A stretch of DNA of 64,000 bases from Escherichia coli (GTDB lineage Bacteria; Pseudomonadota; Gammaproteobacteria; Enterobacterales; Enterobacteriaceae), in the NCBI RefSeq assembly GCF_024223415.1, contig NZ_CP100500.1; one strand, written 5' to 3'. Within the stretch, counting starts at the first letter, position 1, and every line of letters starts with the position of its first letter. The notes under the pieces were generated by a model. The model was not told where the DNA came from, searched no databases, and worked only from the letters and a program-made list of their open reading frames with translations. Of this stretch, positions 14,862-15,437 are shown one piece after another. A program made the position numbers and the translations under genes.

Positions 14862-15437
14862 ATGAAGGTCGATAAAATCACGTCACCAGTGTGGGCTGAC
14901 AGGGGTCATACGACCATAAACTGTATAGTGAAGTTTTCAGACGCGGAAACAGAATGTGTATTTACAGCAAGTGCGGATGATCCTGAGTCTTACGGTCGTG
15001 AAATATTTGAAGCCTGCATAAGAGGTGATGCAGGGCCGGTAGGTGAGTACCGGGCAAATGATGATATGGCTGTGGAAGAAGCACGCAGGATGAAAAACGC
15101 GGAGATAAATGCCTGGCGTGATGCGATGGAGGCGTCAGGGTATGTTTTTGAGCACAGAGGACGGAAATGGGATTATGGAAAGGAAGCCATGACACGTCTT
15201 GGAATGTCGGCATCAGCGGCCAGAGGCGGTGTGTTGCCGGAAGGATTTTTCTGGACGGACGCAGAGAATACTGATGTACCGATGACGGCAGATGAACTGA
15301 TATCCCTGAGTGATGCTGCTGGTAAAGCGATGTTCAGGAAAGGCCTTGAAATACATATAAGGCAAAGGGAGATGAAAAAGGCAATAGCAGAACTGAGTGA
15401 CAGTGAAACCATTCTGGCGTACAGGGTTGGATGGTGA
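14862..15437 (+). CDS. Hypothetical phage protein downstream of tail fibre (possible tail-fibre chaperone)
   Basis: 191-aa ORF with RBS, 14 nt after stf; occupies the tfa position but does not match lambda Tfa as I recall it. Confidence 0.45.
   Translation: MKVDKITSPVWADRGHTTINCIVKFSDAETECVFTASADDPESYGREIFEACIRGDAGPVGEYRANDDMAVEEARRMKNAEINAWRDAMEASGYVFEHRGRKWDYGKEAMTRLGMSASAARGGVLPEGFFWTDAENTDVPMTADELISLSDAAGKAMFRKGLEIHIRQREMKKAIAELSDSETILAYRVGW

Follow-up and report, generated by a model that had tools for sequence, protein, structure and literature searches.

Proteins that carry a DUF4376 domain and are encoded next to phage tail fibre genes form a named family, members of which have already been studied. 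In Alteromonas myovirus V22, GFP-gp26 binds host cells only if it is co-expressed with the DUF4376 protein gp27, encoded downstream; gp27 was absent from the mature gp26 complex in gel filtration, and residual gp27 co-eluted with gp26 from Ni-NTA resin (PMC7289586). In phage A5, the model of gp9 is a helical trimer from which beta-hairpin "tentacles" protrude, and its N-terminal strands prolong a sheet in the head of the fibre; the fibres of A5 also fold in the absence of gp9, and the A5/V22 authors suggest that the chaperone serves transiently as a "cap" (PMC10579305). The same study likened DUF4376 chaperones, with their helical core and tentacles, to the intramolecular chaperones of T5 pb1 and of the K1F endosialidase (PMC10579305). 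The need for a downstream DUF4376 gene was also reported for the H-fibre of a Campylobacter CJIE1-like prophage mounted on a pyocin scaffold (PMC7882524). Finally, a division of labour was proposed for TfaMu and Pam3 gp25: fibre binding falls to a variable N-domain, trimerisation to a conserved helical C-domain (PMC9608196).

Here, we analysed a gene lying directly 3′ of a collagen-containing tail fibre gene in a window of 64,000 nucleotides of Escherichia coli DNA (contig NZ_CP100500.1), in which the trp operon comes after a lambdoid prophage, represented by its late region. We consider that the product of this gene is probably a chaperone of tail-fibre assembly, intermolecular and of the DUF4376 type, Tfa-like in its job and unrelated to Tfa in sequence. 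The features of the locus, in positions of the window, are the following.

13042-14847, plus strand: 601-aa tail fibre gene, the upstream partner, with a phage_tail_N domain and collagen G-x-y repeats
14587-14844, plus strand: domain forming the C-terminal tip of the fibre, aa 516-601 (...VGSYVLG...LGTWMLC...GLFQRIR), proposed as the client of the N-module
14850-14855, plus strand: Shine-Dalgarno-like GGGGAG, read from the sequence, 6 nt 5′ of the ATG of the 191-aa gene
14862-15437, plus strand: coding sequence of the 191-aa DUF4376 protein, from the list of open reading frames (ATG start, 191 codons)
14862-15059, plus strand: N-module, aa 1-66, three beta-strands and one helix, proposed recogniser of the fibre tip
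15060-15434, plus strand: C-module, aa 67-191, long helix, beta-hairpin, helix, beta-hairpin and long helix, proposed generic oligomerising or chaperone body
15451-15478, no strand assigned: GC-rich hairpin with a 10-bp stem, 14 nt 3′ of the stop of the 191-aa gene, with a T-run on the minus strand only

An earlier note had placed this ORF in the tail-fibre assembly position, and this placement holds: an ATG-started frame with its own ribosome-binding site lies on the same strand as the fibre gene and 14 nt from its stop (TGA, 14845-14847), and the upstream product is indeed a fibre with phage_tail_N (Pfam, E 3e-39) and collagen repeats (E 2e-48). The 191-aa gene is probably co-produced with the fibre from the late operon. 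Upstream of the fibre lies a J-like gene (9075-12983, plus strand), an intact ORF of 1302 codons in the window; its product contains an internal duplicated segment of ~60 aa (...[VI]RQYVDDK...) within a coiled-coil-like region before its C-terminal part. The G+C content, 51% on average in the window, falls from 56% in J and the fibre gene to 48.6% in the 191-aa gene, and the adhesin gene that follows has 45.5%. This drop across 13042-17285 could be the trace of a mosaic boundary close to the end of the fibre, or a mere effect of collagen codons. No tRNA or attachment-site feature was found near the 191-aa gene.

The family assignment is clear. Residues 73-180 match Pfam DUF4376 (PF14301) with 75.1 bits for a cut-off of 25 (E 7e-21), the full length matches PHROG 1141 (E 2e-61), and the RefSeq (PGAP) product name is "DUF4376 domain-containing protein". 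As is usual for fibre-associated members of this family, the protein is small, its domain is C-terminal and its gene directly follows that of a tail fibre. On sequence grounds, we thus regard it as an ordinary E. coli member of a known family, with a putative chaperone role. The earlier note had called it uncharacterised, which is apt for the E. coli subfamily, on which we found no experimental work in the literature searched, and not for the family as a whole. With a calculated mass of 21.3 kDa and a pI of 4.95, the protein is acidic and soluble by its physico-chemical values; no signal peptide and no hydrophobic or membrane segment was detected in it. The reading of a membrane or secreted product was ruled out for lack of a hydrophobic segment, and that of a defence gene for lack of a PADLOC match.

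The absence of a match to lambda Tfa, which the earlier note had pointed out, was borne out by profile methods. PF02413 (Caudo_TAP), the family of lambda Tfa and Mu U, was not detected in the 191-aa protein at E<=0.1 in Pfam, while Mu U and U′, taken as positive controls, matched it at E 1e-37. A profile-profile comparison (hhalign) of the 191-aa family with Mu U gave a probability of 4.9%. It has been stated that the Mu U chaperone contains DUF4376 (PMC7882524). We could not confirm this: Mu U (L091, 1976-2503) and U′ match PF02413 only, and the comparison of profiles with the DUF4376 alignment was negative. A match to an unrelated, non-tail family was also looked for in Pfam, NCBIfam, PADLOC and the PDB, and none was found; NCBIfam, PADLOC and PDB sequence searches with the protein returned no match. 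In the PDB, neither the single sequence nor a 20-sequence profile retrieved anything meaningful, the best E-value being 0.15, for plant TIR domains.

Structure prediction, which the earlier note had recommended together with a profile search, gave an AlphaFold2 model of high confidence (mean pLDDT 96.5, pTM 0.73, 93-sequence alignment) made of two modules. The N-module is composed of strands 3-11, 18-25 and 32-37 and a helix 43-54, with pLDDT >95. The C-module comprises helix 67-91, strands 94-98 and 101-105, helix 107-121, strands 130-132 and 138-140 and helix 143-177. The model thus has the layout of the family, with N-terminal beta-strands followed by a helical body from which beta-hairpins protrude. 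In BFVD, Foldseek matched it to DUF4376 proteins; in the PDB, no significant match was found. Conservation within the family is concentrated in the helical body. The N-module has no Pfam family at E<=10, and it is found alone or joined to other C-terminal parts. Similarly, no Pfam family covers the 86-aa fibre tip, which is predicted to be all-beta with low confidence. When three tips and three chaperones were fused into a single chain with Gly/Ser linkers and folded with a paired 11-row alignment, the prediction reached a pTM of 0.34 and a mean pLDDT of 61.7.

Databases give other names to such proteins. The matching PHROG families are labelled "tail fiber protein" and other entries read "putative phage tail fiber protein", names which, along with the gpJ neighbour, whose orthologue in strain Ch1 is annotated as frameshifted, would suit either an additional structural piece of the fibre or a functionless relic in a prophage undergoing decay. 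We hold this to be very improbable. Indeed, the ORF is intact and is present at 99.3-99.8% identity in 21 of 5,426 complete E. coli genomes, and J is itself intact in the window. The predicted fold is that of a compact two-domain helical protein, not of a fibrous trimer repeat. Moreover, a library-wide HMMER search for the family collected 686 representatives at 50% clustering, nearly all of 130-260 aa.

How closely does the E. coli protein resemble the proteins studied so far? V22 gp27 and A5 gp9 also carry PF14301 at their C-terminus, measure 195-239 aa, are encoded directly after the fibre gene and have predicted N-terminal beta-strands followed by a helical body with beta-hairpins. For A5 gp9, which matches PF14301, identity with the 191-aa protein is 29% over the DUF4376 region (E 4e-5). 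The identity is confined to that region, whereas neither the N-terminal regions nor the tips of the client fibres are related. The hosts of V22 and A5 are marine bacteria; chaperone function was demonstrated in V22 and is proposed by analogy for the E. coli protein. Lambda Tfa and Mu U (TfaMu structure 5YVQ) share with our protein the gene position and the arrangement of a variable fibre-binding N-domain and a conserved helical C-domain, but no sequence relationship was detected. This layout supports the view that the protein works like Tfa, not that it belongs to the Tfa family. The chaperone gp25 of Pam3, seen with its fibre gp24 (PDB 7YPX; PMC9608196), is likewise intermolecular; its N-terminal domain binds the fibre and its C-terminal helical bundle serves for trimerisation. 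For the 191-aa protein, binding and trimer formation would follow the same scheme.

The comparison with T5 pb1 and K1F endosialidase (4UW8, 3GW6; Peptidase_S74) is less direct. There, the chaperone is a self-cleaving C-terminal extension, whereas the 191-aa protein is a separate ORF with its own ribosome-binding site; Pfam found no Peptidase_S74 in it, and the likeness to 4UW8 and 3GW6 was not recovered by our fold searches. Prefoldin subunits (1FXK, 2ZDI, 6NR8) resemble the model in shape only, with identities of 5-15% and Foldseek E-values that are not significant. This likeness is not evidence of homology, since long helical hairpins match many unrelated proteins.

A further observation concerns the N-module and the tip of the upstream fibre. 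The position directly after the fibre is occupied by such genes in lambdoid, Stx-type, Mu-like, Vequintavirinae, Vibrio, Alteromonas and Pseudomonas phages. Among examples of a DUF4376 gene following a fibre are PhiR5_2 and phiSTEC1589 (Stx-type), phiP27 (L57 after L56), Av-05 (gp77 after gp76), Vibrio H188 and Alteromonas A5. In Pseudomonas phage Andromeda, the protein encoded directly after the fibre is restricted to the N-module. This 117-aa protein (gp40; L003, 2965-3318) is 43% identical to aa 3-63 of ours and ends in a short helical tail, the fibre upstream being of 655 aa. The GenBank names of the two Andromeda genes appear to be swapped: the 655-aa gene is called "tail fiber assembly" and the 117-aa gene "tail fiber protein".

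To compare both partners, 64 pairs of fibre and downstream gene were taken from 80 viral contigs and from named phages. The contigs were searched with a 20-sequence alignment; the 93-sequence alignment lacked a conserved stretch. Tips were detected with an iterated HMM, single-sequence phmmer having found 9 of the 64 tips of this very divergent domain. While the C-module is common to all downstream proteins (64/64), their N-terminal regions belong to unrelated types, and the C-module remains ~60% identical across N-module types. The N-module type of our protein occurs in 38 of the 64 loci. In 36 of these, the iterated HMM places the upstream fibre in the same tip family as ours; in the remaining two, the same tip motif (...VG[ST]Y...PGTW.xC...GLFQRI) was recognised by eye. 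Conversely, the tip family is found in none of the 26 loci with other N-terminal types (Fisher p = 6e-16, for counts that are not phylogenetically independent). When tips were grouped at 50% identity, the clusters split 11/11 against 0/4. Among close relatives, the pairwise identities of the N-module and of the C-module both correlate with that of the tip. As these pairwise identities do not separate the modules, we argue for co-variation from the table of presence and absence and from the hybrids described below.

The collagen shaft, on the other hand, does not account for the pairing. In the 601-aa fibre, 291 residues lie in G-x-y runs, broken by a non-collagen insert of ~90 aa (aa ~377-465). 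The earlier note had proposed a dedicated chaperone of the collagen-type fibre. The chaperone part of this proposal is sustained by the DUF4376 assignment, the gene position, the co-variation and the hybrids; the dedication to collagen is not supported. Indeed, the fibres phiP27 L56, Av-05 gp76 and that of contig L093 have no collagen and yet carry the matching tip, with the same N-module encoded downstream, and collagen-bearing fibres with other tips are followed by other N-modules. Collagen repeats therefore occur in fibres with matching as well as with non-matching tips, and myoviruses and podoviruses likewise have fibres that lack collagen and carry the tip family (...PGTW...GLFQRI). Specificity goes with the tip and not with the shaft.

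In two short proteins, P0210 (134 aa) and P0265 (137 aa), an N-module of our type precedes the C-terminal half of Caudo_TAP, with matches to profile positions 56/62-131 at E 7e-13 and 1.5e-13. They are located as follows.

Contig L092, 409-813: hybrid P0210, directly after a fibre ending ...AGSWKCMG...TLWQRIA
Contig L093, 3001-3414: hybrid P0265, directly after a fibre ending ...AGTWMCMG...TLFQRIA

One of the associated fibres has Collar and Big_2 domains and no collagen, and adjoins a Baseplate_J gene. Behind the same N-module and tip, the C-module is thus interchangeable in nature with the C-terminal half of Tfa. In addition, E. coli DUF4376 proteins of 223 aa match the N-terminal part of Caudo_TAP weakly, below the threshold. 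Together, the hybrids and the 223-aa proteins lead us to view these proteins as an N-module that keeps to its tip and a swappable C-domain, either DUF4376 or the C-half of Tfa, in line with the scheme proposed for TfaMu and Pam3 gp25. Another database entry, P0243 (147 aa), consists of an N-module (aa 1-58) fused directly with a fibre tip (...IYSIGTYII...GLFQRAY). N-module and tip have a short "GEI" stretch in common, at which they meet, and P0243 is probably a chimera of assembly or recombination.

Altogether, a fibre chaperone other than lambda Tfa is supported by the experiments on DUF4376 proteins, the conserved position, the co-variation of N-module and tip and the hybrids with the Tfa half. 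By analogy with the systems described above, we infer the following course for the E. coli protein. The N-module (aa 1-66) would dock on the C-terminal tip of the fibre (aa 516-601), and the helical C-module would form oligomers at the distal end, probably trimers. The oligomerised C-modules would bring the three fibre chains into register, so that trimerisation would start at the C-terminus. The chaperone would then probably leave the mature fibre, as V22 gp27 does.

This last step can be questioned. Mu Tfa stays bound to the fibre tip, and gp38 of T2 and S16 acts as an adhesin. By the same token, the 191-aa protein could assist assembly and then remain part of the virion, either as an adhesin subunit of the fibre or as a cap at its distal end, contributing to receptor recognition or gating it. 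The "tail fiber protein" label of PHROG, the transient cap put forward by the A5/V22 authors and the residual gp27 eluting with gp26 from the nickel resin would all suit such a permanent place, and the pairing of N-module and tip fits a stable as well as a transient complex. However, gp27 is missing from the mature V22 fibre complex in gel filtration, the part of the protein that is conserved is the helical body, not the exposed variable surface expected of an adhesin, and PHROG names are automatic labels. A lasting cap is thus unlikely in our opinion, and we keep to an assembly chaperone that would be released.

Downstream of the 191-aa gene lies an adhesin cassette. The first gene (15876-17285, plus strand) encodes a trimeric autotransporter of 469 aa, in which a YadA anchor is recognised (E 1e-16). 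This adhesin is 40% identical to EibD over its C-terminal 225 aa, which comprise stalk and anchor, while its passenger differs, and it contains a perfect tandem duplication of ~33 aa. Its gene resembles an accessory gene of the Eib kind situated at the end of the prophage. The second gene (17346-17801, plus strand) encodes a 151-aa protein, named "sigma factor-like helix-turn-helix DNA-binding protein" in RefSeq, with a weak similarity to ORF-156D (22% identity, E 2e-4), the ORF that follows eibD. The last 80 bp of the 191-aa gene (15358-15437) are found at ~98.8% identity in unannotated DNA of ~350 complete E. coli genomes. In SMS-3-5, this stub adjoins IS and transposase fragments, just 5′ of a YadA-like gene and a sigma-like HTH gene, which suggests a decayed prophage end that has retained the adhesin cassette.

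The same order is known from the P-Eib prophages of ECOR-9, where ORF-191A, C, D and E (AF151091, AF151674-6), of ~190 aa and 55-59% identical to our protein over its full length, are followed by a YadA-like adhesin and a small regulator-like ORF; they represent a different allele, to which the GenBank records assign no function. Since an ORF-191 precedes all four eib genes of ECOR-9 (4/4), as the 191-aa gene precedes a YadA-anchor gene here and its 80-bp 3′ remnant is kept upstream of YadA-like genes in the ~350 genomes, one could regard the gene as part of the eib accessory cassette, acting on the expression or export of the adhesin. We find this hardly credible. DUF4376 genes follow fibres in many phages that have no autotransporter downstream, the N-module co-varies with the fibre tip, and the protein has no signal peptide. 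Furthermore, the adhesin does not need the DUF4376 gene, as the ~350 genomes keep the adhesin while that gene is almost entirely lost. The fibre remains, in our view, the partner of the 191-aa protein.

A bolder picture, which we judge rather unlikely, is that N-module and tip form an unnamed, portable lock-and-key pair that travels among siphoviruses, myoviruses and podoviruses, with one of two unrelated "engines", DUF4376 or the Tfa C-half, attached to it. DUF4376 would then act as a coiled-coil holdase similar to prefoldin, covering the tip up to the completion of assembly or of host contact.

These results leave the understanding of fibre assembly unchanged; the pairing of N-module and tip and the DUF4376/Tfa hybrids are small and useful additions to it. 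First, and mainly, the annotation of this locus is improved, since "DUF4376 domain-containing protein", "tail fiber protein" and "hypothetical protein" can be read here as a probable tail-fibre assembly chaperone. Second, when collagen-like fibres of E. coli prophages are expressed or re-targeted, the downstream gene should be co-expressed. Finally, the pairing and the hybrids provide a simple rule to predict which chaperone matches which fibre, and suggest that the C-domains of DUF4376 proteins and Tfa are exchangeable, both of which would be useful for the engineering of receptor-binding proteins, pyocins and phages.
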